DNA of 64,000 bases from Escherichia phage nataliec. The position numbers and the translations under genes are program-made. Below are positions 3-27,161 of the stretch, piece after piece (within the stretch, counting starts at the first letter, position 1; each line of letters begins with the position of its first letter). Under the pieces are notes generated by a model that saw nothing but the letters and a program-made list of their open reading frames with translations, was not told where the DNA came from and searched no databases. The stretch lies in sequence record MN850611.1. One strand, written 5' to 3'.

Positions 3-2057
3 ACGAAGAATGACTCTAATGATTACATTGGTGCAATGGGTATCGGCTCAAAATCTCCATTTGCAATTGCTCAGTCATTCACAGTATCTAGCTATGTTGA
101 CGGTGTTGTTAATAAGTACTCTGTTTATCTTGAGAATGGTATTCCTCAAGTAACTAAGCTGACAACTAACCCAACAAAAGAACCTAATGGTTTAGCTGTA
201 CGTGTGGCAGTTGCTGACCACCGTATCTCAAAGTTCTTTGAAGAAGCTGGTAATGTATACTCATACTTTGCTGTAAAACCAGAAAGTAATATTGTGTACG
301 ACGATGTATTAGCAGATATGAACGTCATTGCCCGTGAAGAGGGTGTTTATGATGCCATGATTCATAAGCAAAGTTGGCGTTCTAGTGGTAACAGGACAGA
401 GTTTAATGTGGTGATGGGTAACATTGCCTACCCTGTTAACATGGAAGCATTACTTGGTGATGACTTCTTCAAAGTATTGCCAGAATTTTTCCGTAGGAGC
501 GTAGACCTTGTAAACATCTACATGCCTATTGGTTCAGTTGCTATTGCAGCTTCTCGTGAAGCATTGCAGATGAATGACACGACAAAAAATGTTATCATTG
601 AGGCTACTAAAAAGATAACTGAAGCCATTACAAAGGATGTTATCAAGAAAGTTAATAGCCAACCTACACTCATGGATGCTGCACAGGCTTATGCTGAGTT
701 ACGTTTGAACTCACGAGAGATGTTTAATGCTGTGTGTCCAAAGCTAGAGTGGGGAGGCGTTAAGCTTGATTCTCTGGAAGAAGAATTGCTAAACATTCGT
801 CGTGGGATTATCTACGCAGAAGACGGCTCAGTCATTTATGAACGTGACGGTAAAGGTAATATTAAGGTTGACAGTAAAGGAAACAACATTCCTAAAGTGG
901 ACTACCTATACAATCCAGTTGCTTATGTCAAGTTCAACTCTTTAGAGAGTAAGATTCGTGCAACAGCACTTTCCTACACTCAAGAGGCAAGTATGTTCAA
1001 TATCTTTGGTGCAATGCGTAAAAGCCAAATTGAACAGTTTTTGTTCGTGATTAATGACCGTCGCAATAAAAATGGCACTGAGAAGACTGTAGGCCGCAAT
1101 CAGATTCTGCGTGGTGCATGTCGAGACTACGCTAACGAGTCAAGCCTGTTCCACAGATACAATGGTATTGTGTTTGTATTCTCGACTGAAAAAGAGTTAG
1201 ATGACTTAATCAACCTACACAAACTTGATAAAAGCTTGTTAAAGATTGTGAAAATGTCTGATAAGGAGCACCATTACCAGCGCAAAGAAGCTGTAAGGGG
1301 TGTTGTAAAACTCTGGAAAGCTGTTCCATCAGAAACTAAAGCTTCATACACAGAGGTGTCAGAAGACCTAGATACAATTGAAGAACCCCAGCTTTATATC
1401 AAGGCAGTAGGCGACACAGTTGATGGTGAATGTTTTTGCTCATCCCCAGAAGATGTAGCTAAAACAATTGCTAATGTTATAGGAAAAACAGTCTATGTTT
1501 TCCGAAAAGCAAATTGGAAAAAGATACCAGAAGACTGGATTGAAGTAGATGAGAAGCTATTGAATGACAGCTTAACTGATGTTCACTGGATTAATCATAA
1601 CAGGTATATGACACGTATCTATATGAATGGTGTCCTTGACCTTACAAGTAGTTGGATTATTGCCAGAAACTTTACGTTTAATAACAAGAAGATTTCTCGC
1701 GGGTATTGCTATTCACGAGATACAAACAAAACCATCTTCTTAGAAGGTAATGAGAATGCTGTTGAGGCAATGTTTGGTAAGATTCAGTATGTGGCTGCAC
1801 CGTTTGCATACACTTACACTATCAGTGTTCTTCAGGATTTGAAGTCATGCCTTGACAATGATACAAAACTGTACAAAAAGATTAAGAAAGCGGGTGACCG
1901 CATGGTTATCAAACTGACAAACTATCTTTCAAAAAGAAAACAAGAAAACTTCTTGCTTTCTCATTTAGATTGGAATAAAGTGTCACCCATCGAAGTGAGT
2001 AAGTTCTTAGGTTTTGATGTGAAGTGTGTTCCAGAAGGAACTACAATTTACGATTAA
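3..2057 (+). CDS. rIIA: rIIA-like protein, C-terminal part (5' end lies upstream of the window)
   Basis: Frame is open from the window edge to stop at 2057 (first ATG at 36). Motifs GIGSKSPFAIAQSFTVSSY and IAASREALQMNDTTKNVIIE resemble T4 rIIA as recalled from memory. Followed by an rIIB-like gene. Confidence 0.6.
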   Translation, partial: TKNDSNDYIGAMGIGSKSPFAIAQSFTVSSYVDGVVNKYSVYLENGIPQVTKLTTNPTKEPNGLAVRVAVADHRISKFFEEAGNVYSYFAVKPESNIVYDDVLADMNVIAREEGVYDAMIHKQSWRSSGNRTEFNVVMGNIAYPVNMEALLGDDFFKVLPEFFRRSVDLVNIYMPIGSVAIAASREALQMNDTTKNVIIEATKKITEAITKDVIKKVNSQPTLMDAAQAYAELRLNSREMFNAVCPKLEWGGVKLDSLEEELLNIRRGIIYAEDGSVIYERDGKGNIKVDSKGNNIPKVDYLYNPVAYVKFNSLESKIRATALSYTQEASMFNIFGAMRKSQIEQFLFVINDRRNKNGTEKTVGRNQILRGACRDYANESSLFHRYNGIVFVFSTEKELDDLINLHKLDKSLLKIVKMSDKEHHYQRKEAVRGVVKLWKAVPSETKASYTEVSEDLDTIEEPQLYIKAVGDTVDGECFCSSPEDVAKTIANVIGKTVYVFRKANWKKIPEDWIEVDEKLLNDSLTDVHWINHNRYMTRIYMNGVLDLTSSWIIARNFTFNNKKISRGYCYSRDTNKTIFLEGNENAVEAMFGKIQYVAAPFAYTYTISVLQDLKSCLDNDTKLYKKIKKAGDRMVIKLTNYLSKRKQENFLLSHLDWNKVSPIEVSKFLGFDVKCVPEGTTIYD

Positions 2058-2136
2058 AGTGTTTGACAAGGGGCTTCGAAGCCCCTTAGAATAGCCTTAC
2101 AAAATGATTTATTAACTAACAAGAGAGAGTAATAAG

Positions 2137-3246
2137 ATGACTACTAAAACTAAAGCACAGATTGACGCAGAAATTTACGAACTGGTTAAAGAAGGTAAGC
2201 TGACTAAAACAGCTATTGCACAGAAGTTCAATACTTCAACCCGTTCAGTTGGTCGTGCTGTAGAGCGTCATGAAGCAACCTTAAAAGGTAAGAAAAAGGT
2301 AGCTTCTAAACCAGCTACGAAGACTTTGAAGCAAGTTGCTAAATCAGTTAAAAAGAAAGCTGACAAACCAGTTGAAAAGGTTGTTAAAGAGCCTGTACAG
2401 AAAGCTCCGGTAAATAAACTGCATGAAGCTATGCAGAATGGCAACCAAATTGAGTACATGATTACTGGCGACTCTGTTATCATGACTTTCGGTGCAGATT
2501 CTGAAATCGTTGAATCTACCCATCCGAACTACAAAGAAATCGTGATGGCTGTTGTATCCGGTGAGTATAAGAAAGCTTTCGAACTGATGAACATTCGTAA
2601 GTCTATCGAAAACTTCACTCAGGGTGCTATCACCATCAAAGGTGACAAGTTATTCTACGGTGCTGTTGAGATGCGTTCTACTCTGGTTGACCGTATTCTT
2701 CACATGATGAAGACTGGAGATAAGGGTTTTGAACGCCTTGTGATGTTCTTCGAAAAACTGATGGAAAACCCATCTAAAGACTCTGTAGAACAACTTTGGG
2801 GATTCGTATCTCACCTTGATGTTGAAATTGATGAAGAAGGCTACATCATTGGTTGGAAGAAAGTCTCTACTCATGAAGGCAAGCTGGTTGACTCCCACAC
2901 CTACAGAGTACCTAATGATTTGGGTAACATTGTAGAAATGCCACGTTGGATGGTTGATAATAACCGTAACGTGACTTGCTCTCAAGGTCTTCACGTTGGT
3001 GCTTGGGATTACGTTCGTTTCTTCTCAGGTGATACAATTCTGAAGGTTCGTGTCCATCCACGAGATGTTGTATCTGTTCCAACTGATTACAACGATATGA
3101 AGATGCGCTCGTCTCGTTATGAAGTTGCAGCAATCGTTGATAATCAACGTAAAGTGCTGAAAGCATGGGATGGCAAGACTGAAGCTTTGCATGTCATCGT
3201 TGGCACTGCTGGGGAACTCATCTCTCAGCGTAAACGTGAAATCTAA
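2137..3246 (+). CDS. rIIB: rIIB-like protein with lysine-rich N-terminal insert
   Basis: 369 aa. C-terminal motifs LFYGAVEMRSTLVDRIL and VTCSQGLHV...KVRVHPRDVVSVPTDYNDMKMR match my recollection of T4 rIIB. Sits directly downstream of rIIA-like gene; RBS gagagagt upstream. Confidence 0.65.
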   Translation: MTTKTKAQIDAEIYELVKEGKLTKTAIAQKFNTSTRSVGRAVERHEATLKGKKKVASKPATKTLKQVAKSVKKKADKPVEKVVKEPVQKAPVNKLHEAMQNGNQIEYMITGDSVIMTFGADSEIVESTHPNYKEIVMAVVSGEYKKAFELMNIRKSIENFTQGAITIKGDKLFYGAVEMRSTLVDRILHMMKTGDKGFERLVMFFEKLMENPSKDSVEQLWGFVSHLDVEIDEEGYIIGWKKVSTHEGKLVDSHTYRVPNDLGNIVEMPRWMVDNNRNVTCSQGLHVGAWDYVRFFSGDTILKVRVHPRDVVSVPTDYNDMKMRSSRYEVAAIVDNQRKVLKAWDGKTEALHVIVGTAGELISQRKREI

Positions 3247-6900: not shown

Positions 6901-7686
6901 ATGGGTATTGTAAAAATCATCAATGGGGATATCTTCTCCGCATTTGATAAAGGTAAGTTTGATATTATTGGTCACGGTTGCAACTGTATGAACTTAATGG
7001 GTGCAGGTATCGCTGACAAGATTTCTAAACTTTACCCAAAAGCATATGAGACCGATACAGAAGTTTATCTGTATGCAGGTGGTATAGGCCACAAGCCCTG
7101 TGAAAATTTACTGGGTAATTTCTCTGTAGCACGTTTAAAACAAGGTCGTATAGCTAACCTTTACACTCAGCTTAAGACTGGTAAAGATGCCCGATACAGT
7201 GCTTTAGAGTCATCTTTGAAGAAACTTAACAGGTACTGTGAAGTCAATCAGTTGAAGAAAGTTGGTTTACCTATGATTGGTGCAGGTATCGGTGGACTTG
7301 ACCCTCAAGCCGTCACAGTTATCATCAATCAGGTGATGAAGAGTGTAGATGTTTATCTATATATCTATGAAGGAGAGATGTACCACAAGTTACTCTCAGG
7401 TTGGAAGAACTACTGTGAACCAGAATACTTTGCAGGTGTAGCAGTGTTCACAGATAACGCAGTTACCCTCTTCAGACGAAGAAAAGGTAAGGTACATCAA
7501 AGTAACCCTCCGGTTGAAAAGATGTCTCTAAGTAACGCTCTAGTTACCCACCTGTCGAAGAGCAATCACAGAATTGCAGTAACATTTGGCAGTGATGCAG
7601 ATACTTACATCTATGCAAGAACTGATGAGGATATCGAGACAGTTTTCTCTTCGCCAGAAGTTACCTTCTTAGACGCAAAGAACTAA
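6901..7686 (+). CDS. macro-domain protein (ADP-ribose binding/processing) with C-terminal extension
   Basis: N-terminal IINGDIFSAFDKGKFDIIGHGCNCMNLMGAGIADKISKLYP and later VGLPMIGAGIGGLDP match macro-domain signature blocks; 261 aa. Confidence 0.55.
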   Translation: MGIVKIINGDIFSAFDKGKFDIIGHGCNCMNLMGAGIADKISKLYPKAYETDTEVYLYAGGIGHKPCENLLGNFSVARLKQGRIANLYTQLKTGKDARYSALESSLKKLNRYCEVNQLKKVGLPMIGAGIGGLDPQAVTVIINQVMKSVDVYLYIYEGEMYHKLLSGWKNYCEPEYFAGVAVFTDNAVTLFRRRKGKVHQSNPPVEKMSLSNALVTHLSKSNHRIAVTFGSDADTYIYARTDEDIETVFSSPEVTFLDAKN

Positions 7687-7759
7687 GAAACTTCGTAGTA
7701 TATTCACAATAGACTAAGCCTTTCTTATCTGGTAAATTTTTCAGGTAAGGAGGGCTTTT

Positions 7760-7952
7760 TCATTTCAGAATTGTGCAGGTATATTTCTATAGAGAAATCT
7801 GTAGAGGAAATTTTGAACTCCAAAGAGAAAATTCATTTTCAAACTGTGCAGGTAATCTCCAAAGGGTTTTTTCATTTTCAAAACGTGCAGACCCCGCTCA
7901 GGTCGGGCAAGAAAAATCATTTTAGAATTGTGCAGGTAGGTGGGTGCAGGTG
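7760..7952. repeat. four direct repeats, consensus TCATTTT(c)A(r)AAyyGTGCAGGTA
   Basis: Copies at 7760-7781, 7833-7854, 7872-7893, 7917-7938, plus an extra GTGCAGGT at 7945-7952, in an ORF-poor intergenic stretch. Confidence 0.6.
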
Positions 7953-8115
7953 GGGATGTCGCCATTTCTCACAAGGCTACCACATCTGGAAATAAAAGTC
8001 AACAGAAAAATTTGTAGCGGATTGAAAAATAATTCTTGATTGTAGTTCTGTTTTGTGGTATTCGCGCGCACCCGTTTCATTACAATTTTTGCAAAAAATA
8101 TTTTTAAAATTCCTA

Positions 8116-8144
8116 TTGACTCTTTGAGTATGGTTATCTAATAT
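8116..8144 (+). promoter_or_regulatory. sigma70-like promoter
   Basis: TTGACT, 17-bp spacer, TAATAT; about 50 bp upstream of the CDS at 8195. Confidence 0.55.
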
Positions 8145-8194
8145 TTGCATCAGACGGGCAAGCAAGCCCACTTCCTAAACTGGAGAATCTAAAA

Positions 8195-8401
8195 ATGCTG
8201 TACAGTCGCGAATTGATGGTTACAACTAACATTAACACAAAGGCAAAACGTTTTTACATACAAATCTGTGGCGTATGGTCCAGAATATCAGAAGCTGACT
8301 ATTGCAACTATGTAGAAACGGCTATAAACTCTAATTGCTACCTTACAAGAAATACAAGAAAGTACATAAGACAGACAGCAATTTACTACTACGATAAATA
8401 A
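8195..8401 (+). CDS. hypothetical protein
   Basis: 68 aa ORF downstream of promoter, RBS ctggaga. Confidence 0.4.
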   Translation: MLYSRELMVTTNINTKAKRFYIQICGVWSRISEADYCNYVETAINSNCYLTRNTRKYIRQTAIYYYDK

Positions 8402-8488
8402 AGTACTTTACAAGGGGCTTATAGTTCGATAAAGTAAGCCCCAGATAAAGAGCTTTGCTAACTAACCTTAAACTAGGAGAATCTGAAA
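8401..8488 (+). promoter_or_regulatory. intergenic cassette family A, copy a
   Basis: AAGTACTTTACAA + hairpin GGGGCTTA-loop-TAAGCCCC (8414-8442) + AGATAAAGAGCTTT + conserved leader with SD taggaga; precedes ATG at 8489. Confidence 0.6.
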
Positions 8489-8872
8489 ATGGCATATCGT
8501 GCACCTAAATTCATCAACAAAGACAACTTTCGCAACGCACTGGAGAAGTCACTTGATGAAAAATTTAACGGTAAATTGATTATTGTTCACGCATTCAATT
8601 TTAAGTATGATATTAATGGGAATAAAATCAACCATTACACGGCAACCATGATAGATGGTACACTTTCAAGTGAAAAAGCCGTACTGAATGCACTTGCTGG
8701 ACGCGGTAAAAACCTGATAAAATGTGATAAGCGACGTTATCAGGGCGGCGCATATGGTTATGATGATGCTGTTTACCATCTTGAAAATATGGGCTATCAA
8801 GTAGAAAAAGCTGGAGCATCACAAATCATCGGCAGCGATGGTTATGTAACTATCTTCAAAATTAACAAATAA
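8489..8872 (+). CDS. hypothetical protein
   Basis: 127 aa ORF behind family A cassette. Confidence 0.5.
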   Translation: MAYRAPKFINKDNFRNALEKSLDEKFNGKLIIVHAFNFKYDINGNKINHYTATMIDGTLSSEKAVLNALAGRGKNLIKCDKRRYQGGAYGYDDAVYHLENMGYQVEKAGASQIIGSDGYVTIFKINK

Positions 8873-8958
8873 AGTACTTTACAAGGGGCTTATAGTTCGA
8901 TAAAGTAAGCCCCAGATAAAGAGCTTTAACACTAAATCCTAAATTGGAGAACTTAAAA
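8873..8958 (+). promoter_or_regulatory. intergenic cassette family A, copy b
   Basis: Near-identical to copy a including the hairpin. Confidence 0.6.
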
Positions 8959-9216
8959 ATGGCTATTATCAAAAACGTTGTAATTACCGCAAAGACTCGT
9001 GATGACGCTCGTATCATGGCTAAAAAGTTATGCGGGAAAGTGGTTGACAACGGAAAACAATCTGCTGTAAGGTGGGGCGTGAAAGCTGATAAGCAACTAA
9101 CCTTAAAACATAATTCAAACAACCTTTTTAAAGGTGTAAAATCACTCGGTAAAGTAAACGTTTTTACCAAAAAAGGCTATAAAATGCACTTATCATTAAC
9201 TGGCAATTTAATCTGA
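8959..9216 (+). CDS. hypothetical protein
   Basis: ORF track start 8944 is a TTG inside the conserved leader; ATG at 8959 sits at the conserved distance from the SD. Confidence 0.45.
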   Translation: MAIIKNVVITAKTRDDARIMAKKLCGKVVDNGKQSAVRWGVKADKQLTLKHNSNNLFKGVKSLGKVNVFTKKGYKMHLSLTGNLI

Positions 9217-9228
9217 TAAAGTACTTTA

Positions 9229-9311
9229 CAAGGGGCTTAAAAGTTGATATCTTAAGCCCCAGATAAAGAGCTTTACCACTAAATCAAGTCCTTAAACTAG
9301 GAGATTCAAAA
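9229..9311 (+). promoter_or_regulatory. intergenic cassette family A, copy c
   Basis: Hairpin GGGGCTTAA-loop-TTAAGCCCC with a different loop; conserved leader. Confidence 0.6.
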
Positions 9312-9824
9312 ATGAAAACTGTAGACGCTACCTTTGAAGTTGTAAAAGAAAAATTTTCCATCGTTTATGAGGCTGTTAATTGCTATGAAGCAAGTCATAA
9401 TCTTGATAATTGGAAGTTTACAGATGACCATCAAGGCGGTGTGACTGTTAAAAATCCCAACTGTCAGCGTAATGATTTTAAATATGCAATCCCTTTACAT
9501 TACAGCCTTAAACAGCTTTCAAGTGACTACGCAAAACAAGGCCGGGAAAATCCATCGAAAGAGGCTTATATCAGCTTACAGAGAGAATTAGAAAGAGATT
9601 TAGAGGCTTCAGAGTATAACATTGCCGCGAAAGTTGTGGATGCAAACGGTAGAACGGTTTTAGACAGTTTTTATATTGGTTATGCTTTCGATTGGTGCTA
9701 CAGTGACGGCGATGATTTAGATGACAGACTAAAAGAGGAAGTGAACAACGCAGACGCAGAATCTGAAGTATTAGAACGTTTGGAATCGTTGAAAGACTCA
9801 GTGATGAATATCTTTAAGAACTAA
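9312..9824 (+). CDS. hypothetical protein
   Basis: 170 aa ORF behind family A cassette. Confidence 0.5.
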   Translation: MKTVDATFEVVKEKFSIVYEAVNCYEASHNLDNWKFTDDHQGGVTVKNPNCQRNDFKYAIPLHYSLKQLSSDYAKQGRENPSKEAYISLQRELERDLEASEYNIAAKVVDANGRTVLDSFYIGYAFDWCYSDGDDLDDRLKEEVNNADAESEVLERLESLKDSVMNIFKN

Positions 9825-9827
9825 ATA

Positions 9828-9916
9828 GCTTTCTTTACACGGGGTTATCAAGCTGGTAGGATAGCCCCAGATAAAGAGATTTATCAAATAAAGCCCTTAA
9901 ACTAGGAGATTCTAAA
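9828..9916 (+). promoter_or_regulatory. intergenic cassette family A, divergent copy d
   Basis: Hairpin CGGGGTTATC...GATAGCCCC (compensatory base changes versus other copies) then AGATAAAGAG and conserved SD leader. Confidence 0.5.
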
Positions 9917-10213
9917 ATGAAATTATCAAATCAAGTGCGTGAAAATCTGAGCAAATTACTCAACAAAATTGATTTCATTGAAACATCAAGGAATAGTCAT
10001 GATGTTATGGAATGGTTACACGGCAAAATAAAAGGCCGTCGTGTAGTGATTTGCTTATGGAATAGTTGCAGGGAATATAAAAAACCTGTATTGCAAGTTA
10101 ATATTTATGATGATACTTTTAAAAGTCCTGTAAAGTCTAAAAGCGATTTATTAGAATCCTATGAGATAACTGTAAATGGCAAAGTATCACGTAAAGAGGA
10201 AACACCATGTTAA
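9917..10213 (+). CDS. hypothetical protein
   Basis: 98 aa ORF. Confidence 0.45.
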   Translation: MKLSNQVRENLSKLLNKIDFIETSRNSHDVMEWLHGKIKGRRVVICLWNSCREYKKPVLQVNIYDDTFKSPVKSKSDLLESYEITVNGKVSRKEETPC

Positions 10214-10539
10214 TGACTGGTATCACTGCAATCATTGCCATTTTCGCGCTATATAAGGCATATAAAGCCTATAATCTAGCAAATAAGGCAATCACACAGC
10301 AGGTTAGCAATAACCTTGTAGAAAGCTTTCTAGGGCGCCTCAGTGATGAGCAAATAAAGCGGCTAGAGATGAGCTTCAGATACAAAGCGAAAACCTATCA
10401 GATAAGTGACATCTTCAAAGATGATTTTCAGTTAGTCGATGATTATAATTCACTGATAAATGCTTTAAATATCAGTGACTTAAAAGACTACTACGCTGTA
10501 ATTGTTCAAGAATTGAGCAAACGAAAACAAAGTGTTTGA
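10207..10539 (+). CDS. hypothetical membrane protein
   Basis: N-terminal hydrophobic helix GITAIIAIFALY; 110 aa. Confidence 0.45.
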   Translation: MLMTGITAIIAIFALYKAYKAYNLANKAITQQVSNNLVESFLGRLSDEQIKRLEMSFRYKAKTYQISDIFKDDFQLVDDYNSLINALNISDLKDYYAVIVQELSKRKQSV

Positions 10540-10628
10540 CACTGGTTTTCAGATAGATTAAATTACACATCAACGGGGCGGGAATGACCTTCCCCACTAA
10601 ATAAAGTCCTAAACTGGAGATTCTGAAA
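10536..10628 (+). promoter_or_regulatory. intergenic cassette family B, copy e (promoter + 5'UTR hairpin + SD)
   Basis: TTGACA (10536-10541), 17-bp spacer, TAAATT (10559-10564), then hairpin GGGAA-tgacc-TTCCC and conserved leader AAAGTCCTAAACTGGAGATTC. Confidence 0.6.
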
Positions 10629-10901
10629 ATGTATACTACTAACAACGGTCGTACTCTAAATGTAACTTTGCGCCACTATGTGAACGGTGTAATGCACTTC
10701 GAGGATTTACAAGCCGAACAACATATCTTAGATTGGCAAGTTGCAGGACTCCAAAAAACTGCTACAGGATACGGGAAAAAGATTCCAACCAGTTGGAAAG
10801 TATACTACGAAGGCCGTTTGCGCAGAATTTATCAGGATGTGCAAAGCAATAGCGCATCGAGTTACATCATAGTAAAAGGTAAAAAGCTGAATTTAGTATA
10901 A
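10629..10901 (+). CDS. hypothetical protein
   Basis: 90 aa ORF behind family B cassette. Confidence 0.45.
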   Translation: MYTTNNGRTLNVTLRHYVNGVMHFEDLQAEQHILDWQVAGLQKTATGYGKKIPTSWKVYYEGRLRRIYQDVQSNSASSYIIVKGKKLNLV

Positions 10902-10987
10902 AGTACTTTACAAGGGGCTTATAGTTCGATAAAGTAAGCCCCAGATAAAGAGCTTTACCACTAAATCCTAAATTGGAGAACTTAAAA
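10901..10987 (+). promoter_or_regulatory. intergenic cassette family A, copy f
   Basis: Identical to copy b over about 80 nt. Confidence 0.6.
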
Positions 10988-11392
10988 ATGGCTATTAATA
11001 ATCGCGAGTTATCAATCTTAAAAGCACGTTTGACCGTTAACCGGATTAATGTTATTACGTCATCAGCACCGGACGAAACATTGCACAACATTATTGGGAA
11101 GATTCAAAGCGTTATCTTAGACGTTGAAAACGTAAAAAACTCATTGGCTGACGTTGCAGCAGGTATCACGCTAGACGGTGCACAATATGAAATGACCGAC
11201 ATGTTAGGCAAATCTAAGGTAATGAATAAAGAGCTTGATTTGAAAATGTTTCGATTTGCTGTTAAAGTGTGGCTATCTGTCGAGTATGACGCTAATTTTG
11301 CAATCGCTGACTTTTTCGCAACATGGTTGCAACGTAACTTAACAAATCACGATTTTCGTAATATCTGTGATGCAATTTACGCAGAACTATAA
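10988..11392 (+). CDS. hypothetical protein
   Basis: ORF track start 10973 is TTG in the leader; ATG at 10988 preferred. Confidence 0.45.
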   Translation: MAINNRELSILKARLTVNRINVITSSAPDETLHNIIGKIQSVILDVENVKNSLADVAAGITLDGAQYEMTDMLGKSKVMNKELDLKMFRFAVKVWLSVEYDANFAIADFFATWLQRNLTNHDFRNICDAIYAEL

Positions 11393-11401
11393 AAATTTTT
11401 G

Positions 11402-11493
11402 TTGACACTGGTTTTCAGATAGATTAAATTACACATCAACGGGGCGGGAATGACCTTCCCCACTAAATAAAGTCCTAAACTGGAGATTCAAAA
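11402..11493 (+). promoter_or_regulatory. intergenic cassette family B, copy g
   Basis: Same promoter, hairpin and leader as copy e. Confidence 0.6.
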
Positions 11494-11697
11494 ATGGCTA
11501 TTATCAACGGTTTAACCATTGAAACTACACACATCAAAGATATTAAAGTTGGTGATGTAGTCCTTTCCCACGGCGTAGAGAAAACTGTTACTGCAAAGGA
11601 TATTAAAGAGGATTCTTTCATGGGTAGGACTCTCTTCGGTGATTCTTATTGCTTAGGTTATCTTGCAGTTTTAAAAGTTGTCAAAAATAACCGATAA
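11494..11697 (+). CDS. hypothetical protein
   Basis: 67 aa ORF. Confidence 0.4.
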   Translation: MAIINGLTIETTHIKDIKVGDVVLSHGVEKTVTAKDIKEDSFMGRTLFGDSYCLGYLAVLKVVKNNR

Positions 11698-11789
11698 AGT
11701 ACTTTACAAGGGGCTTAAAAGTTGATATCTTAAGCCCCAGATAAAGAGCTTTACCACTAAATCAAGTCCTTAAACTAGGAGATTCAAAA
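11697..11789 (+). promoter_or_regulatory. intergenic cassette family A, copy h
   Basis: Identical to copy c. Confidence 0.6.
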
Positions 11790-12353
11790 ATGAAATGCTT
11801 TCACGGTACTACTCTGAAAAACTTTGTAAACCTGCTGAGTGGTGGCGATAAGCCGGAAGGAATCTGGAACTGCTCCTACATGGACGATTGTTTCTACGTT
11901 TACCCAATGAATAAGGTTATCAAAATGGAATGTCTGGAAGATGAAGAAGATTCTTACATCCGTGAACGCTGCATTCAAAGTGCCTTAGAGTCGGGGCTTA
12001 TTACGGCTGCTTTCCAAATGGAAACGCAGGACGTGATTGTTATTGAAATGGATATCCCAGAGGAAGAACTAGAGGACGATTATTCTTGTGACAACATGAG
12101 CGAAATTGCCAGCTTTACCGGATACTTTGATAAAAATTGGATTGTTAGTATCCACTCAACGAAATTTAGTGCGATGTATGCACCTTTCTTTGTACCTGAT
12201 ACGAAAAACCGCAATTTGGGATATGTTGACGATGATTTGTTGAGTATTGCAAAAATTGTACAGAATAGCGGTGATAGTTCCGTGTTTTGTGACCTACTGG
12301 ATAAAATCACGGAAAACCTCACAGAACGCAATTTAAAGGACTTTTTAGGATAA
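11790..12353 (+). CDS. hypothetical acidic protein
   Basis: 187 aa ORF. Confidence 0.5.
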   Translation: MKCFHGTTLKNFVNLLSGGDKPEGIWNCSYMDDCFYVYPMNKVIKMECLEDEEDSYIRERCIQSALESGLITAAFQMETQDVIVIEMDIPEEELEDDYSCDNMSEIASFTGYFDKNWIVSIHSTKFSAMYAPFFVPDTKNRNLGYVDDDLLSIAKIVQNSGDSSVFCDLLDKITENLTERNLKDFLG

Positions 12354-12416
12354 GCAGTACAAAGACACCAACTTTTAACTTAAGGCCCACACAGGGCCAT
12401 TTAGAGGGCTTCAATC

Positions 12417-12650
12417 ATGCTTACAACCGTTTATCTTATCCTTTCTATTTGTAATGGCCATTCATGTGATTTTAAAGGGCTTGAGGAGTTTACAGGAAGT
12501 AAAGAAAATGCCGTTCAGGTCTGTCAGATAGCAAGACAAGACTACCCCGCCAGTGATGACATTCAGTGTTATTTTAAGACAGAAGACAGCGACGGCGTTT
12601 ATTTTGACAGCGTTGATGGTCAATATGAAATTATCATTGAAAAAGACTAG
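12417..12650 (+). CDS. hypothetical protein
   Basis: 77 aa ORF, hydrophobic N-terminus. Confidence 0.4.
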   Translation: MLTTVYLILSICNGHSCDFKGLEEFTGSKENAVQVCQIARQDYPASDDIQCYFKTEDSDGVYFDSVDGQYEIIIEKD

Positions 12651-12659
12651 ACAAGCCTG

Positions 12660-12738
12660 ATAAAAGTATGTAAATTGTCAATCAACGGGAGGGATGACCT
12701 CCCTACTAAGTAAAGTCCTTAAACTAAGAGATTCAAAA
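12660..12738 (+). promoter_or_regulatory. intergenic cassette family B, copy i
   Basis: TAAATT -10 (12671-12676), hairpin GGGAGG-gatga-CCTCCC, conserved leader. Confidence 0.5.
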
Positions 12739-13080
12739 ATGGCTTATGTAACCGTAATTACCGATAAAGATGGCTCATCTTGGTCAACTCAAGTAAGCGA
12801 TAAGATGTCACCTATGCAGTGCCTAAAATACTTTGAGCAATGGAACAAAGGTGAAGAAACAAGCCCCTTCCAAGTGATGCAGATTATCCATACAGATAAC
12901 GAAGGGAATAAAACTGTTTTGAATAGTGAGTACTATGCAACCAGATTCGAAACGAGAAGTAAAGCAATGAAGCTCTTACGTGAATCCGGTTATTCTCATA
13001 TTGCCGCGCTAATCTGGGATGACCTCCTAAAAAGTCAGCGTATCAGCTATGTAAAACCGGAAAAAATATTTATCAGCTAA
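12739..13080 (+). CDS. hypothetical protein
   Basis: ORF track start 12694 lies inside the UTR hairpin; ATG at 12739 is at the conserved cassette position. Confidence 0.45.
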   Translation: MAYVTVITDKDGSSWSTQVSDKMSPMQCLKYFEQWNKGEETSPFQVMQIIHTDNEGNKTVLNSEYYATRFETRSKAMKLLRESGYSHIAALIWDDLLKSQRISYVKPEKIFIS

Positions 13081-13112
13081 TCAATAACTTACAAAAAACT
13101 TTTAAAAAAGTG

Positions 13113-13141
13113 TTGACAATGCCCCTTGACATTGGTAACTT
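13113..13141 (+). promoter_or_regulatory. sigma70-like promoter (weak -10)
   Basis: TTGACA, 17-bp spacer, TAACTT. Confidence 0.35.
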
Positions 13142-13209
13142 TGTTCGAGGGGGTTTATCTAAAAGGGATTCACTTAAAAGATTCTTTATAGATAAACTTA
13201 AAAAATTGC

Positions 13210-13301
13210 TTGCAATCAGCTATCAAAACAAGTAAATTACTAATCAACGGGAGGGATGACCTTCCCCACTAAGTAAAGTCCTTAAACTAGGAGATTCTAA
13301 A
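13210..13301 (+). promoter_or_regulatory. intergenic cassette family B, copy j
   Basis: TTGCAA, 17-bp spacer, TAAATT, hairpin, conserved leader. Confidence 0.55.
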
Positions 13302-13832
13302 ATGAACAAGTTCAAAGCTATCAACTTCATCCGCTCAAATAGTGTTATGTCAAAACCTGTTAAAGACACTTACGAATTTCGTTGTAATGGTGTACATTTT
13401 GCAACCATCACCAAATCAGAAAACGGGGCTTATTACGTCCATCGCCGCAATGTTGCAACCGTTGTTGTCTCTCATTTTATGCAAGCTGTCGCGGAACTTC
13501 TCCCGATGTTTTTAGGGCTTTACTTAGATGAGTGTAAAAACGTTCACAATCACGTTAAAAACCTTTTAAACAGTTATAAAATGGCTTATGAACGTTCTAT
13601 CAAGTCCTTAAACAAGTTTTACAACGCACCTGAAAATACTGTGTCAATAGCCTATGCTGCAAATGGTGGGATGGTAAACTTATCCAATGTGGAAGAAATC
13701 GAACTGCATGACTTACGCCCTAGCGGTTACTCTAAGACTCTCGGTGAAGGATTATCATTCAATATCAAGAACTTAGAAAAAACTTTAAGAGATATTGAAA
13801 AAGATATTGACGAGACAATCAAAAATCTGTAA
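13302..13832 (+). CDS. hypothetical protein
   Basis: 176 aa ORF. Confidence 0.5.
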   Translation: MNKFKAINFIRSNSVMSKPVKDTYEFRCNGVHFATITKSENGAYYVHRRNVATVVVSHFMQAVAELLPMFLGLYLDECKNVHNHVKNLLNSYKMAYERSIKSLNKFYNAPENTVSIAYAANGGMVNLSNVEEIELHDLRPSGYSKTLGEGLSFNIKNLEKTLRDIEKDIDETIKNL

Positions 13833-13897
13833 ATTACTAATCAACGGGAGGGATAACCTCCCCACTAAGTAAAGTCCTTAAACTAGGAGACTCTAAA
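13807..13897 (+). promoter_or_regulatory. intergenic cassette family B, copy k
   Basis: TTGACG, 17-bp spacer, TAAATT (overlaps the 3' end of the preceding CDS), hairpin, conserved leader. Confidence 0.55.
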
Positions 13898-14146
13898 ATG
13901 GCAACTATCCGCGCAACTGTTAACGAATTTGGCTTCTACTCTCTGGATGTTAAATTCGACCTTGTGGGTACTGATAACGCCTTTGAAATGGTGAAAGTTC
14001 TTATCAGTCAGACCATCAAAGACTATAATCCTTCAGATGAGTTCTGGAAAGAAACAAAACAGGAAGTTCTCAAAGAGGGCTATTCATATCACTATTGGGG
14101 TGAAAAAATCGTCTCCCTGTACTACGACAAAGAAGGCACTAACTAA
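13898..14146 (+). CDS. hypothetical protein
   Basis: 82 aa ORF; followed by hairpin GGGGCTAAATAGCCCC at 14158-14173. Confidence 0.45.
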   Translation: MATIRATVNEFGFYSLDVKFDLVGTDNAFEMVKVLISQTIKDYNPSDEFWKETKQEVLKEGYSYHYWGEKIVSLYYDKEGTN

Positions 14147-15820
14147 TCGACGCAACGGGGCTAAATAGCCCCAGATACCTTTACAGCCCCTTTCCCATAG
14201 GAGCTTTTTTACGTCTATCAAACCCCTTATACAACCCTTTCCCTTTCCTTTCCAGAATCTTATCAGACCTTAAAAAGCAATAACTCTATAGCCTACTCTA
14301 TAGCCTTTTATCAAATCAACTTAAATATAAGCCCATAACCCGAAAGGGAAGGGCAACCATTTAAACGCTCTATAAAGCCCTATAACAGCCTTATCAACCT
14401 AACTTAAGGGATTGCATTACCTCACCCTTAAAAGCCCTTTATAAAGCTTCCTAGAGCCTTAAAAGAATCTTATAAGGGTGTAAGCTTTATTATCTCGTTA
14501 GCTATCTTGTGAATAACTAAAAGGGCTATGAGATAGGAATCTATCGAATCCTATTGTTAGTGTCTTAAAAGTATGTTATAGGGGCTTAAAAGTTACTTTG
14601 AAGTAGCTTAAAAGTTACGTAAATGCTAGCCCCCTTAACATTTTCTTAACAATTTCTTAACAATCCCTACATAGTTATGCTTTTAAGACACTTGTTAGCA
14701 ACTTGTTAGCCCCTTGTTAAATCTCTGTTAAGACCACGTAAAAGCCTTGTAAGAGTCTTTGACATAGCCTTAAAAGCTCCTGTGAAGCCCTATAAAGAGT
14801 TATCTGTACAGTTGGGGTGTAACTACTAGGAAGAGACTTAAAAGAGCTTATAAAGAGCTATAGAGAGCTTTTAAGAGGTATGTTTAAGGAATCACTAAGA
14901 AAGGGAAGGGAACGATAAGAAAGAGATAGTGACCATGTTAATAGCTAGTTAAAAAGATTAAACACTTGTTAGAAACTTGTTAATTATCTTAACAAAATAA
15001 CTCTTTAAAATTAACTTGTTAGCTCTTGTTAGTCATCTGTTAAGATTCTGTAAAACCTATGTATCAACTGTTAAGAAACTGTTACAGCCTTGTTAGTTCT
15101 GTTAAGAATCTGTTAAGACCTTTGAAGAGTTGTTAAGAAGATGTGAGAACTGTTAAGAGATTGTTAAGGATATTTTAAAATTTTGCAAAGTACTTGTAAT
15201 GGAGCTGTTAAGGGCTACCAAGCAGATATACATCCTAATCAGATATTTTTGAGTTCCTTCAAAGACCTTAAAAAATGACTTGACAGTCCTATTTTATAAA
15301 AATTTTAAGATTCTGAATAATTACCTATACAGTCTTTTAAAAATACAGGTAATAACAGGCTTATAAGATACCTTGTTAGTACCGTGTTAGACCTTGTGAG
15401 ATAAGGTCTGTAAAGATATTCCTGTTAAGTTTGTTAAAACAGTCTATATAGAGGCTTAGTAATACCTAGTGAACACCTATAGAGAGTGTCATAGCTGACA
15501 TAGAGATTAAGAGGTGTATAGGAGCTTCTAAGAGGGTGTAGAGAGATGGTTAAGGTGATTGTATAGGTTGTTAAGAGGGATTGTTAGAAGAGTGTTTAGA
15601 AGGGCTATTTAGAAGGGCTATACAGAGGGCTATTAAGACCACTAGATAGTTACTAAGATACTATATAGTACTATATAACTATATAGAGAGTAAGATTAAG
15701 AAGGTTGTTAAGAAGGGTAGATATTTTGTTCACATATGATGGTGACCCAGAGGTTGGGACAACCGATAAAATTTTATAAGAATTAAAAAGCCCCCCAATT
15801 AAGGAGGCTCTTAAGATATT
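14147..15820. repeat. ORF-free iteron-dense region (candidate origin or protein-binding array)
   Basis: About 1.67 kb with no ORF of 60 aa or more in six frames, between convergent gene blocks. Dense short repeats: CTTGTTAG/CTGTTAAG at roughly 10-11 bp spacing (14940-15180), tandem TTCTTAACAAT and ACTTGTTAGC pairs, CCTTAAAAG copies, and a purine-rich TTAAGARGG series (15480-15730). Confidence 0.6.
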
Positions 15821-16378
15821 TTAAACCAGTGTTTCCAGAACTGTCTTCAGTGATGACTTGGTTGTCTGATAAAAATGAGTGAATCCATTGTTGTTATCGA
15901 ATATCTGCATCATGATATCATCTCCCTTGATTGGGTACACTCGGATATCATAGTGAAAACCATTAAAGACACAAGAACCACTACAGAATGCTCTAAAGTC
16001 ATCCATTGAGATATACTCTTCATGACCTGTGATTTTTATACAAACACCTTTACTCGGTCTCTTAGGGTTGATATCTTCCATCACAGACATACTCTGTCCA
16101 CCAAGAGAGACCACAGTGACCACTTTACGGTTCTTCTGTTTAAAGTACATCTTAACTTTCTGCAAAGTGTCTTCATAGAACGGATACGACTTCTCTACAA
16201 AGATTCCTTCAAGTGGCTCTTTACCATTTTGAACCTCTCTGTAACCCCGTACTGCAAAGATAATTTGTTCTAACCTATTAAGGCTTTCTTCGTAGAGTGC
16301 TCCACGAATATCATTCCAGTCAAGGACTAGGTAGTTGCCTTCAACTTCTTTTAAGTTATCTTTTTCCATATCTATCAC
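15821..16378 (-). CDS. hypothetical protein
   Basis: 185 aa ORF, first gene of the leftward block. Confidence 0.5.
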   Translation of the reverse strand: MIDMEKDNLKEVEGNYLVLDWNDIRGALYEESLNRLEQIIFAVRGYREVQNGKEPLEGIFVEKSYPFYEDTLQKVKMYFKQKNRKVVTVVSLGGQSMSVMEDINPKRPSKGVCIKITGHEEYISMDDFRAFCSGSCVFNGFHYDIRVYPIKGDDIMMQIFDNNNGFTHFYQTTKSSLKTVLETLV

Positions 16379-26005: not shown

Positions 26006-26082
26006 CTCTGTTTAGCTCAGCTTGGTAGAGCGTTCCGTTTGGGGCGGTAAGGCCGGAGGTTCAAGTCCTCCAACAGAGACCA
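26006..26082 (+). tRNA. tRNA-Pro (anticodon UGG), CCA encoded
   Basis: Hand fold: acceptor ctctgtt/aacagag, D stem gctc/gagc, anticodon loop tTTGGgg, T arm ggagg-ttcaagt-cctcc. Confidence 0.65.
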
Positions 26083-26099
26083 AATTTAAAGGGGTTACT

Positions 26100-26456
26100 A
26101 TGAGATTTTTAAAAGAATGTCCAGTTCATGGTTTAACTGAACATAGCATTCATAAGAATGGTAACGCCGGTAATAGAGTAAATTGTCTAAAATGTTGTGC
26201 ATTAAGGACAAAACTTAGAGAGAATGCCAATAGAGAGAAAGCATATAAGCTTTATGGCGATAGCTGCAAAATTTGTGGCTATAATAAATGTAAAAATGCT
26301 TTAGAATGGCATCACCTTAACCCAAACGAAAAAGAGAATACACCATCAAAACTTATGGGTGCATCTTGGGAAAAGGTTAAAAAAGAACTTGATAAATGTG
26401 TTTTGCTATGTGCTAATTGCCACAGAGAGGTTCATAGCGGAATTACAATGATTTAA
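26100..26456 (+). CDS. HNH homing endonuclease
   Basis: Motifs WHHLNP and CANCHREVH; ORF track start 26022 overlaps tRNA-Pro, so ATG at 26100 (RBS aaagggg) is preferred. Confidence 0.7.
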   Translation: MRFLKECPVHGLTEHSIHKNGNAGNRVNCLKCCALRTKLRENANREKAYKLYGDSCKICGYNKCKNALEWHHLNPNEKENTPSKLMGASWEKVKKELDKCVLLCANCHREVHSGITMI

Positions 26457-26457
26457 T

Positions 26458-26532
26458 GTCGTAGAAGGCAAATGGTTAGCCACCTGACCTTCAATCAGTT
26501 GCTCGCAGGTTCGAATCCTGTCTACGACACCA
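26458..26532 (+). tRNA. tRNA, anticodon ambiguous (loop cCTTCAa, possibly UUC/Glu with C33)
   Basis: Acceptor gtcgtag/ctacgac, T arm gcagg-ttcgaat-cctgt, CCA encoded; anticodon stem has a mismatch. Confidence 0.5.
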
Positions 26533-26538
26533 GTTTTG

Positions 26539-26612
26539 ACAGAAGACCAATTACAGCAAACTTAATCTTATTCATCTGAAGGTAAATCGGACAAAGAAGA
26601 TATTTGGTCTGG
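26539..26612 (+). ncRNA. helix-bracketed structured element 1
   Basis: 5' CAGAAGACCAA pairs with 3' TTGGTCTGG, enclosing about 55 nt; sits between two tRNA genes. Confidence 0.35.
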
Positions 26613-26623
26613 TCATTAAGAAT

Positions 26624-26700
26624 TGCGGGTATAGAGAAAGGGCGTCTCACATGTCTCATTAGCATGGTATCGGCAGGTTCGACTCCTGCACCCGCCTCCA
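26624..26700 (+). tRNA. tRNA-Met or Ile2 (anticodon CAU)
   Basis: Acceptor (t)gcgggt/acccgc(c), anticodon arm catgt-ctCATta-gcatg, T arm gcagg-ttcgact-cctgc, CCA encoded. Confidence 0.6.
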
Positions 26701-26706
26701 AATTTA

Positions 26707-26770
26707 CAGAAGACCGTTTACAGCAATATTTATTAAATTTTTAGCGGAAAAATTGAAAGATACGGTCTGG
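26707..26770 (+). ncRNA. helix-bracketed structured element 2
   Basis: 5' AGAAGACCGTTT pairs with 3' ACGGTCTGG; internal hairpin AATTTTT-agcgg-AAAAATT. Confidence 0.35.
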
Positions 26771-26783
26771 TAATACTAAACAT

Positions 26784-26860
26784 GGTTAGGAAGCACATAA
26801 GGTATGTGCGGTCGCCTGTTAAGCGAATGGCACAGGGTTCGAATCCCTGACTAACCGCCA
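26784..26860 (+). tRNA. tRNA-Asn (anticodon GUU)
   Basis: Acceptor ggttagg/actaacc, D stem gcac/gtgc, loop ctGTTaa, T arm caggg-ttcgaat-ccctg, CCA encoded. Confidence 0.7.
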
Positions 26861-26929
26861 AATTTAGGAGAGAAGCGATTGCTCACCGATTTGTAAGGTG
26901 CAAGTCCTTAGCCTGAATAGAAATTAAAT

Positions 26930-27017
26930 GTGTCGTTATCCCGTAGATGGTAGCGGTGGGGACTGTAAATCCCTTGTCATTGAGACTCGGTAGGTTCGAC
27001 TCCTACACGGCACACCA
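26930..27017 (+). tRNA. tRNA-Tyr (anticodon GUA), class II
   Basis: 88 nt; acceptor gtgtcgt/acggcac, anticodon arm gggga-ctGTAaa-tccct, long variable arm, T arm gtagg-ttcgact-cctac. Confidence 0.7.
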
Positions 27018-27022
27018 ATAAA

Positions 27023-27100
27023 GGTTATGTAGTTTAATTTGGTTAAAATACTCCCCTGTCACGGGAGATGATGAGGGTTCAAATCCCTTCATAACCGCCA
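27023..27100 (+). tRNA. tRNA-Asp (anticodon GUC)
   Basis: Acceptor ggttatg/cataacc, anticodon arm ctccc-ctGTCac-gggag, T arm gaggg-ttcaaat-ccctt. Confidence 0.75.
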
Positions 27101-27161
27101 ATTTTGAGAGGGCTATTTAGCCCCTCCCTTAAAGAGTTCTTACGAGTATTCTTTAAAGGAG

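Follow-up and report, generated by a model that had tools for sequence, protein, structure and literature searches.

Putative promoter and stem-loop cassettes resembling the PeSLs of T4-like phages in the small-gene array of a Felix O1-like phage

Promoter-early stem-loops (PeSLs) are known from the T4-like phages RB49/phi1, T4/PST and KVP40/nt-1 (Arbiol 2010, PMC2839356; Comeau 2014, PMC4122927). In the available text of these papers, a PeSL consists of a stop codon, an AT-rich stretch, sigma70 -35 and -10 hexamers, a GGGG..CCCC stem-loop, a Shine-Dalgarno (SD) site and an ATG, with the stem-loop falling into five positional subclasses within or beside the promoter (PMC2839356). Promoter activity, terminator activity and mini-circles are presented there as demonstrated by experiment, and attenuation as measured for one PeSL stem-loop. 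Here, we analyze a stretch of 64,000 nucleotides (nt) from Escherichia phage nataliec (MN850611.1), hereafter the window, in which fourteen small genes (g0 to g13) are separated by recurring intergenic modules of two families, A and B. We consider it probable that they form a variable early-gene block of 6 kb, between a phosphatase gene and a non-coding region at 14.2 kb, in which nearly every small gene has its own promoter/stem-loop/leader cassette and in which the modules are also substrates for recombination. From its sequence, we take the locus to be an array of PeSL-like cassettes in Ounavirinae that coherently joins regulation with recombination; its mechanism has precedent, and its functional steps are inferred.

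Sequence comparison places the window in Felixounavirus. Region 8000-14600 matched 258 phage records, the best of them at 88-93% identity over >85% of the query, and every genome for which a taxonomy line was retrieved belonged to Ounavirinae, mostly to Felixounavirus (Felix O1-like myoviruses) and otherwise to Mooglevirus, Suspvirus or Kolesnikvirus. The likeness to PeSLs, as far as the available text on these describes them, begins with the combination of a sigma70-type early promoter with a GGGG..CCCC stem-loop that lies between the two hexamers, across the -10 or just 3' of it. The positions found here (in the spacer and over the -10 in family A, 3' of the -10 in family B and wholly within the spacer in a copy between rIIA and rIIB) match PeSL subclasses. 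As described for PeSLs, the modules are concentrated in variable regions whose small genes lack known homologues; the indels that distinguish close relatives have modules at their borders and chimeric modules at the resulting junctions. The phages that carry them are Ounavirinae, however, not T4-like phages, and the modules would work like PeSLs without belonging to the same sequence lineage, as there is no detectable sequence similarity and the BLAST matches of the modules lay almost entirely in enterobacterial and Erwinia phages. The layouts are limited here to two fixed ones, and type A has in addition a conserved lower helix of 12 positions, in which the -35 segment pairs with the start of the transcript; the available text describes no such helix among the PeSL features. 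The AT-rich upstream element does not appear to be general: such a stretch precedes the g7>g8 module (TAAAAATTTTTG) and lies at 13085-13110, while most modules have coding sequence or a palindrome, AAAGTAC, at this place. Finally, the functions of the present modules are predicted from their sequence.

Earlier records treat these repeats only as direct repeats or as predicted promoters or terminators. The Felix O1 genome paper gives a 57-bp (A) and a 39-bp (B) sequence merely as direct repeats, calls the temporal control of transcription unknown and reports no T4-like proteins that modify the host RNA polymerase. They are labeled DR_1 to DR_9 in the GenBank record of wV8, and the wV8 paper mentions neither repeats nor promoters. 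A predicted B promoter is given in the records of AYO145A and ASO1A, where B hairpins are labeled as terminators, also by prediction, and the record of phiEa21-4 annotates only terminators in the array. We found no paper linking the repeats to PeSLs, to a promoter embedded in family A, to an extended helix or to cassette exchange; the phiEa21-4 genome paper (Lehman 2009) was outside the search and may describe motifs of Erwinia phages.

The pattern of family A, TTTACA-N-GGGG...CCCCAGATAAAGAG, occurs exactly six times (8407, 8878, 9225, 9834, 10907 and 11703) and that of family B, TAAATT-N4-ATCAACGGG, five times (10559, 11425, 12671, 13233 and 13830), all on the + strand, with zero copies elsewhere in the 64 kb. 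Shuffled sequences have expectations of 0.00 and 0.01, respectively, ruling out a chance origin, and the counts agree with the six and five copies given in a preliminary description of this DNA. A direct-repeat search recovers both families, including a 103-nt pair of 100% identity (9215-9317 and 11693-11795) and a 93-nt pair of 98% identity (10536-10628 and 11402-11494), and 13 of the approximately 22 GGG...CCC hairpins of the window fall in the array, the rest being mostly ordinary T-tract terminators. An assembly artefact, the caveat raised at that stage, is ruled out as well, since family A matched 289 phage records (1969 places) and family B 251, so that the modules are present in hundreds of independently sequenced genomes.

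Eleven modules in the interval 8401-13897 had been assigned to eleven genes. The number of modules stands (they lie in 8399-13897), although the interval holds 13 genes and a twelfth, B-like module, predicted to be the first promoter of the array, lies just outside it (8116-8194). The two genes without a module are g5 (10207), which overlaps g4, and g10 (12417), which has its own hairpin and its own SD site. All 11 modules extend from the stop codon, or overlap it, to the ATG, with spacers of 86-101 nt for family A and most of family B. Common to them is an AU-rich leader with a GGAG SD site 7-9 nt 5' of the ATG; it had been called identical throughout, and we found two variants, CCTTAAACTAGGAGA and TCCTAAA(C/T)TGGAGA. 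The hairpins said to flank the array, after rIIA and after its last gene, are both present, 1-3 nt away from the positions first given (2070-2085 and 14157-14172). The one after rIIA goes beyond the simple hairpin of the same type that it was taken for, being a composite of TTGACA, a hairpin in the spacer and TAGAAT, the same layout as family A.

Folding from stop codon to ATG revealed that the family A hairpin is the top of a helix of ~60 nt, in which a 3x3 internal loop separates a lower stem of 12 positions from a GC-clamped upper stem of 9 bp (-23 to -26 kcal/mol, z-scores of -2.3 to -3.8). In the lower stem, (T)AAAGTACTTTA, the stop-codon/-35 segment, pairs with TAAAGAGCTTT(A/G), and the AGATAAAGAGCTTT box, previously listed as a separate motif, is the 3' arm. 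Pairs 1-9 of the upper stem are formed in 90-100% of 58 distinct hairpins and pairs 10-11 in 26-34%. Two-sided changes occur at pairs 3 (GC/TA, with TA in Erwinia phages), 7 and 8 (AT/TA) and 9 (five pair types), and pair 5 varies between CG, TG and TA; the compensatory changes noticed earlier within the window (GGGGCTTA/TAAGCCCC versus GGGGTTATC/GATAGCCCC) are confirmed. In a set of 146 distinct extended modules, the lower stem is paired in 93-100% at positions 1-5 and 7-11, two purines mostly face each other unpaired at position 6 (A·A in 94/146, G·A in 33/146), pair 8 alternates between GC (116) and TA (18), and pairing is ~25% beyond position 12. Slid registers of these 146 modules pair at 29-53%, compared to 90% in the true register. 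The g3-g4 variant shows compensating lower-stem changes, with TTTCTTTA paired with TAAAGAGA. RNAalifold predicts the same two helices on a MAFFT alignment of 36 sequences. Covariation by fixed columns failed at the top of the upper stem, where MAFFT shifted some variants by 1 nt in register, and pairs of that stem were counted from its base instead. In a counting control, 98.4% of the cells pair, none of 500 shuffles reaches the observed covariation score and slid versions pair at 31-62%. The covariation is good evidence for the upper stem and genuine, if modest, evidence for the lower one. A transcript starting at the module's own promoter would have an essentially unstructured leader (-2.9 kcal/mol, z +0.3), and, because it lacks the 5' arm, only RNA reading through from upstream would form the helix.

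No hairpin of the array passes a scan for intrinsic terminators (GC-rich hairpin plus U tract); the stem is followed by AGATAAAG or ACTAAAT, and the absence of a U tract from family A that had been noted earlier is confirmed. With ~20-21 pairs (11 lower and 9 upper), two helical turns and a 3x3 loop, the helix fits the geometry of RNase III signals (PMC1540722). It could, then, be specifically a host RNase III signal comparable to those of T7 early genes, with a single cut at the 3x3 loop that separates the cistrons, leaves the upstream mRNA with a 3' hairpin and gives the downstream message a 5' end close to the promoter-initiated one. Escherichia coli substrates typically span two turns, and internal loops limit cleavage to one strand, leaving protective 3' hairpins (PMC1540722), which is what a two-turn helix broken by an internal loop and lacking a U tract would offer. 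The T7 signals of the R1.1 type are likewise intercistronic hairpins of ~60 nt with two turns, an internal loop and no U tract, for which a protective 3' hairpin is expected (PMC1540722); they differ in having no sequence relationship with family A and in not being fused to promoters, and cleavage here is hypothetical. A further difference is the G-C clamp beside the loop, where the upper stem opens with four G-C pairs; pairs of this kind in the proximal box can be inhibitory to cleavage (PMC1540722). Since, in addition, the evidence for the lower stem is modest and no Rfam family matches (covariance models gave nothing at E<=1 in 7600-15900 and only tRNAs past the gathering threshold in the whole window), we regard an RNase III signal proper as possible, if on balance unlikely.

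The preliminary description saw family A as a hairpin and leader without a promoter. A consensus promoter scan reports TTTACA-17-TAAAGT, TATCTT or TAGGAT in 6/6 A modules, and we followed this arrangement in 229 copies (78 distinct sequences) from GenBank and IMG/VR that cover Felixounavirus, Mooglevirus, Suspvirus and Kolesnikvirus. TTTACA is invariant across the 78 variants, and TAnnnT lies 16-18 nt 3' of it in 77 of them, in the form of 15 different hexamers, against an expectation of 14% from loop shuffling. An unsupervised alignment shows the T and A of the -10 to be invariant despite their position in the hairpin loop among variable bases, while both the inner bases of the hexamer and the loop bases vary. 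The 17-nt spacing is preserved where the stem register shifts by 1 nt, a TGn extended -10 is found in 47/78 variants, and the (A/T)GATAAAG box begins 6-7 nt 3' of the -10 hexamer, which provides a purine at the expected start site. The hairpin of family A therefore sits in the promoter spacer and overlaps the -10, a design repeated with better hexamers (TTGACA and TAGAAT) in the rIIA-rIIB spacer. These regularities indicate that family A is not promoterless and would carry its own sigma70-type promoter.

The earlier reading, in which family A is an RNA hairpin (a processing site or a factor-dependent terminator) plus a leader, and the genes behind it would be expressed by read-through from the promoter of g0 and from those of family B, seems doubtful to us. 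The -10 of type A is indeed weak (9/12 matches overall for the promoter), and the stem includes TTTA as well as the final T of the -10, so that part of their conservation may be structural. Such a constraint does not account for the loop-located TA that stays invariant while its neighbors vary, nor for a spacing of 17 nt that survives a register shift of the stem; the frequency of TGn and the consensus TTGACA and TAGAAT around the same hairpin in the rIIA-rIIB copy also count against it.

Family B had been described from the start as a sigma70-type promoter followed by a hairpin in the 5' untranslated region, and this holds in the larger sample. Among 141 distinct copies, retrieved with a pattern that left the hexamer 17 nt upstream of the -10 free, 137 have TTGnnn or TAGACA (TTGCAA, TTGACA, TTGACG, TTGACT, TAGACA or TTGATT) at exactly 17 nt, and the -10 is mostly TAAATT. 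Several of the -35 hexamers are embedded in the final codons of the preceding genes, which are unrelated (for example, g12>g13 and x8>g13, x8 being an extra cassette of some relatives), an arrangement which argues that selection acts on the promoter itself. Stop codons are reused in the -35 (TGA in TTGACA, as for g5 at g5-g6; TAG in TAGACA, as for g10 at g10-g11) or in the -10, where the stop codon of g12 provides the first three bases of TAAATT at g12-g13. The hairpin (56 distinct sequences, -3.6 to -15.6 kcal/mol) begins ~3 nt 3' of the predicted start site, which supports a promoter followed by a hairpin just inside the predicted transcript. Hairpins at the 5' end of E. coli mRNAs, such as that of ompA studied by the Belasco laboratory, stabilize the message because structure close to the 5' end hinders 5'-end-dependent attack by RNase E. 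The family B hairpin has a similar geometry, although its start site is only predicted and stabilization is hypothetical.

Taken together, each module would combine a host sigma70-type promoter, a GC-clamped stem-loop and the shared AU-rich leader with its GGAG SD site. In type A, with the -35 TTTACA just 3' of the upstream stop codon, transcription would start at the A of AGATAAAG and give the unstructured leader. Read-through RNA from upstream would carry the whole ~60-nt helix (with the AAAGTACTTTA/TAAAGAGCTTT lower stem), which may end or process the upstream message and leave it a protective 3' hairpin, either by attenuation, as shown for T4-type PeSLs, or by an RNase III-type cut at the internal loop, two routes that are not exclusive. 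In type B, the promoter often overlaps the end of the upstream coding sequence, and the hairpin would serve as a 5' stabilizer and as a barrier to read-through from upstream. Because they are 85-100% identical over 60-100 nt, modules of both types would also serve as substrates for homologous recombination, by which whole cassettes could be deleted, inserted, duplicated or relocated with their neighbors undisturbed. A stronger version, which we put forward as speculative and rather unlikely, is that the same ~60 bases of family A are used twice, as a promoter and as an RNase III-type helix in read-through RNA whose cut would produce about the same 5' end as the promoter, so that there is one standard unstructured leader either way, the element also driving cassette exchange, possibly via excised mini-circles, across the subfamily.

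Several observations weigh against the cassette reading proposed here. The -10 of type A has only 4/6 matches to TATAAT and its last T is also constrained by the stem. Ten of sixteen fixed-column pairs never vary, and the support for the lower stem comes from one clearly covarying pair, some G-U alternation and sharp boundaries; the conservation of CTTTA could be due only to its being part of the -35, and the variants are related by descent, so their counts are not independent events. Hairpins without a U tract would, by the usual rule, not be expected to terminate transcription. A literature search found no transcriptome paper covering the Ounavirinae modules, and the timing known by reverse transcription-PCR from Felix O1 is divided: ORFs 16, 20, 21 and 22 (homologues of g3, g7, g11 and g12) peak at 5 min, in support of early expression, whereas ORFs 17, 19 and 23 (homologues of g4, g6 and g13), whose late maximum is among the contrary points, peak at 25 min (PMC3185647).

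The mapping of genes and modules in 26 related arrays showed that their gene contents differ by whole cassettes, in line with the shuffling by recombination suggested in the preliminary description. In Felix O1, g0 is joined to g3 by an A module and g7 to g11 by a B module; in Alf5, an A module joins g0 to g4; in wV8, one joins g2 to g4 and an extra cassette, x22, is present; in genome L062, a B module joins g7 to g9; and in genome L024, B modules connect g7 to g11 and g11 to g13. Other extra cassettes (x8, x12, x15 and x25) are present or absent among the arrays, g2 is duplicated in genome L015, x15 and x22 occupy different positions in different genomes, and the gene order is different in Erwinia phage M7. 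Two pairs of genes, g4/g5 and g9/g10, behave as two-gene cassettes. The junctions are seamless, the spacers keeping the standard ~90 nt without remnants of the missing genes, and three-way alignments showed that the junction modules are chimeras, the left part resembling the left parental module and the right part the right one. The switch point varies from case to case within the conserved part (the -10, the leader or the SD site) and in L062 is in the leader shared by families A and B, a variation that points to homologous exchange and not to a site-specific one. Some hairpin variants are restricted to a single lineage and recur there at two or three junctions within a genome (h04 in Felix O1 and L024, h19 and h22 in Citrobacter phage Mordin, h25 in SUSP2 and h26 in genome L077), and the g8>g9 junction has h02 in some genomes and h01 in others, a pattern that we read as concerted evolution between modules within genomes. 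These footprints support homologous recombination between modules as the process underlying the cassette differences, and module positions are orthologous across four genera.

Lambdoid morons are autonomous units of promoter, gene and terminator; each is a single insertion that arose by an illegitimate event, their signals are diverse, and their expression is from the prophage. The array resembles them in having self-contained accessory gene units that vary between relatives and differs in that its tandem cassettes share one standard module and recombine through it. In the available text, the authors of the PeSL work draw the same contrast between PeSL cassettes and morons (PMC2839356).

That the inverted repeats act as DNA, either as operators for a phage regulator that shuts off early promoters or as cruciforms on which a phage-encoded recombinase or endonuclease acts to move cassettes site specifically, appears improbable. 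A palindrome inside the promoter spacer is in a classic operator position, and the idea of a protein recognizing GGGG..CCCC is raised in the available text of the PeSL authors (PMC2839356), but several stem sequences coexist in one genome, the arms covary without a fixed sequence, the crossover points differ along the module as in homologous exchange, and there is no integrase or recombinase among the array genes scanned. A spread of selfish mobile repeats (MITE- or REP-like) into intergenic spaces, with a secondary link to gene starts, can be practically dismissed: although the hairpin flanks are alike as direct repeats (AAAGTACTTTAC and AAAGAGCTTTAC), which could resemble a target-site duplication, and a tandem double module is found in Mordin between g0 and g1, the orientation is constant, the modules are confined to one region and run exactly from the stop codon to the SD site and ATG, their orthologous positions are kept across four genera, and the correlated changes in the flanks fit inverted pairing and not a direct repeat. 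Elsewhere in Ounavirinae genomes, no copy within a gene or in either orientation has been seen so far.

Integron cassettes (attC) were also considered and rejected: the ten array proteins scanned are without a Pfam domain, each cassette has its own predicted promoter and the crossovers are spread along the module. Two readings modeled on T4, a RegB-type cut at the GGAG SD sites and a MotA box in GCTTTAC, were likewise considered. A search of IMG/VR for occurrences outside Ounavirinae gave none among the stretches listed. The 15-mer GCCCCAGATAAAGAG matched 97 IMG/VR stretches, only 45 of them with the full architecture; those listed were contigs of ~54-90 kb with the same gene array (Felix O1-like), and the remaining 52 had the bare 15-mer only, consistent with chance.

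Some further variation of the arrays was recorded. The genes g9 and g10 are found together in every Felixounavirus-, Mooglevirus- and Suspvirus-like array that has either, and apart in Erwinia phage M7 (L109); g4 and g5 are usually together, with exceptions in genomes L085 and L020 and in Erwinia phage M7. In Mordin (L010), the g0-g1 spacer (~1098-1246) holds a tandem of two full family A modules that differ in their hairpin variants and have no gene in between, apparently the trace left by a cassette deletion or an unequal exchange. In Erwinia phage M7, the place of family B is taken by another hairpin family (GGGGTTACGGTTATGAGACTATAACCCC after TTGCAA or TTTACA).

If the cassette reading is true, the PeSL principle, in which standard linkers express and shuffle accessory genes, would extend from T4-like phages to an unrelated group and would seem to be of general use, not something peculiar to T4. 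It would give a concrete answer to a question left open by the Felix O1 genome paper, how the early genes are transcribed, in phages that are used in Salmonella typing, biocontrol and therapy, and it would predict where therapeutic isolates differ in gene content. The array genes would be marked as early accessory genes that are independently expressed and, for this reason, as candidates for host takeover or defense-related functions. The modules themselves would be compact natural promoter, insulator and ribosome-site parts, as predicted from their features (Table 1).

Table 1. Predicted features of the array and of neighboring regions in the window
Feature	Position	Strand	Details
rIIA	36-2057		window start
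rIIA-rIIB spacer, composite layout	2055-2136	+	TAAAGTG; TTGACA 2063-2068; 16-nt palindromic hairpin 2070-2085, filling the promoter spacer; TAGAAT 2087-2092
rIIB	2137-3246		window start
Phosphatase gene	ends 7686	+	
Strong intrinsic terminator, 17-pair stem + T run	~7716-7765	+	3' of phosphatase gene; terminator scan
B-like module before g0	8116-8194	+	TTGACT-17-TAATAT; short hairpin GGGC..GCCC 8156-8169; leader TCCTAAACTGGAGA
Fourteen small genes, g0-g13	8195-14146	+	67-187 aa
Family A, g0-g1	8399-8488	+	stop TAA to base before ATG; TTTACA 8407-8412; -10 TAAAGT 8430-8435
Family A, g0-g1, structure	8414-8442 (upper hairpin); ~8399-8410 and 8446-8457 (lower-stem arms)	+	leader/SD to 8488
Family A, g1-g2	8870-8958	+	TTTACA 8878; TAAAGT ends 8906; hairpin 8885-8913
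Family A, g2-g3	9214-9311	+	TTTACA 9225; TG-extended TATCTT ends 9253; hairpin 9232-9260
Family A variant, g3-g4	9822-9916	+	TTTACA 9834; TAGGAT ends 9862; hairpin GGGGTTATC..GATAGCCCC 9841-9868
Family B, g5-g6	10536-10628	+	TTGACA-17-TAAATT; hairpin ~10575-10595 near predicted 5' end; leader + SD
Family A, g6-g7	10899-10987	+	TTTACA 10907; TAAAGT ends 10935; hairpin 10914-10942
Family B, g7-g8	11390-11493	+	A/T-rich stretch; TTGACA 11402-17-TAAATT; hairpin; leader
Family A, g8-g9	11695-11789	+	TTTACA 11703; TATCTT ends 11731; hairpin 11710-11738
Family B, g10-g11	12648-12738	+	TAGACA-17-TAAATT; hairpin GGGAGG..CCTCCC 12687-12703; SD variant AAGAG
Family B, before g12	13210-13301	+	TTGCAA 13210-17-TAAATT 13233; hairpin 13249-13266; leader
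Family B, g12-g13	13807-13897	+	TTGACG + spacer inside last g12 codons; -10 TAAATT 13830; hairpin 13846-13862
Array end	14157-14210	+	hairpin GGGGCTAAATAGCCCC, then AGATACC, without promoter hexamers

The ten array proteins scanned (g0-g9) had no match in Pfam, and all ten matched PHROG families of unknown function. The arrays of Erwinia phages M7 and phiEa21-4 (L114) include a gene with the annotation superinfection immunity. The first codons (ATGGCTATTA...) are common to g2 (8959), g7 (10988) and g8 (11494), with the leader homology running on into the coding sequence, and g1, g11 and g13 also begin with Met-Ala. In the family B hairpins at 12687-12703, 13249-13266 and 13846-13862, an SD-like GGGAGG pairs with CCUCCC, a sequence similar to the 16S rRNA end that carries the anti-SD; this may be a coincidence or a ribosome-related decoy.

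Two spacers of the array depart from the common layout. That between g11 and g12 is unusually long, and its part upstream of the family B promoter (13078-13209) contains an A-tract, TTGACA-17-TAACTT and an inverted repeat, CCCC...GGGGG (~13121-13153). Its conservation extends over Felixounavirus, Mooglevirus and Suspvirus, and its product may be a small RNA or a short peptide (a GTG ORF at 13110-13235, 41 aa). The g9-g10 spacer (12351-12416) has no module, and a different hairpin, GGCCC..GGGCC, is directly 5' of the AGAGGG SD site; in relatives, this hairpin is GGGG..CCCC plus T-rich sequence.

The terminator that follows the phosphatase gene carries a terminator annotation in wV8, AYO145A and ASO1A and is predicted to insulate the array from upstream transcription. 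Between it and the g0 promoter, five direct repeats of ~28-34 nt (TTTTTCATTTTCAAAnnGTGCAG, often followed by GTA) are found at 7751-7935, 26-47 nt apart, which could be iteron-like or regulator-binding sites; the spacer that holds them is ~500 nt in many relatives and shorter in Mooglevirus-like genomes. At the other end, the array-end hairpin has a weak stem with a T6 run downstream (~14185-14210), and g13 is followed by 1.65 kb without ORFs between convergent gene blocks (14150-15820). This region, a candidate replication origin or packaging region, is dense in short repeats (CTTGTTAG/A and CTGTTAAGA) with 11- and 31-nt spacing in both orientations, and relatives carry repeat_region annotations at its counterpart. 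Farther downstream, 24 tRNA genes are clustered on the + strand at 26006-31347, as expected for Felix O1-like phages.

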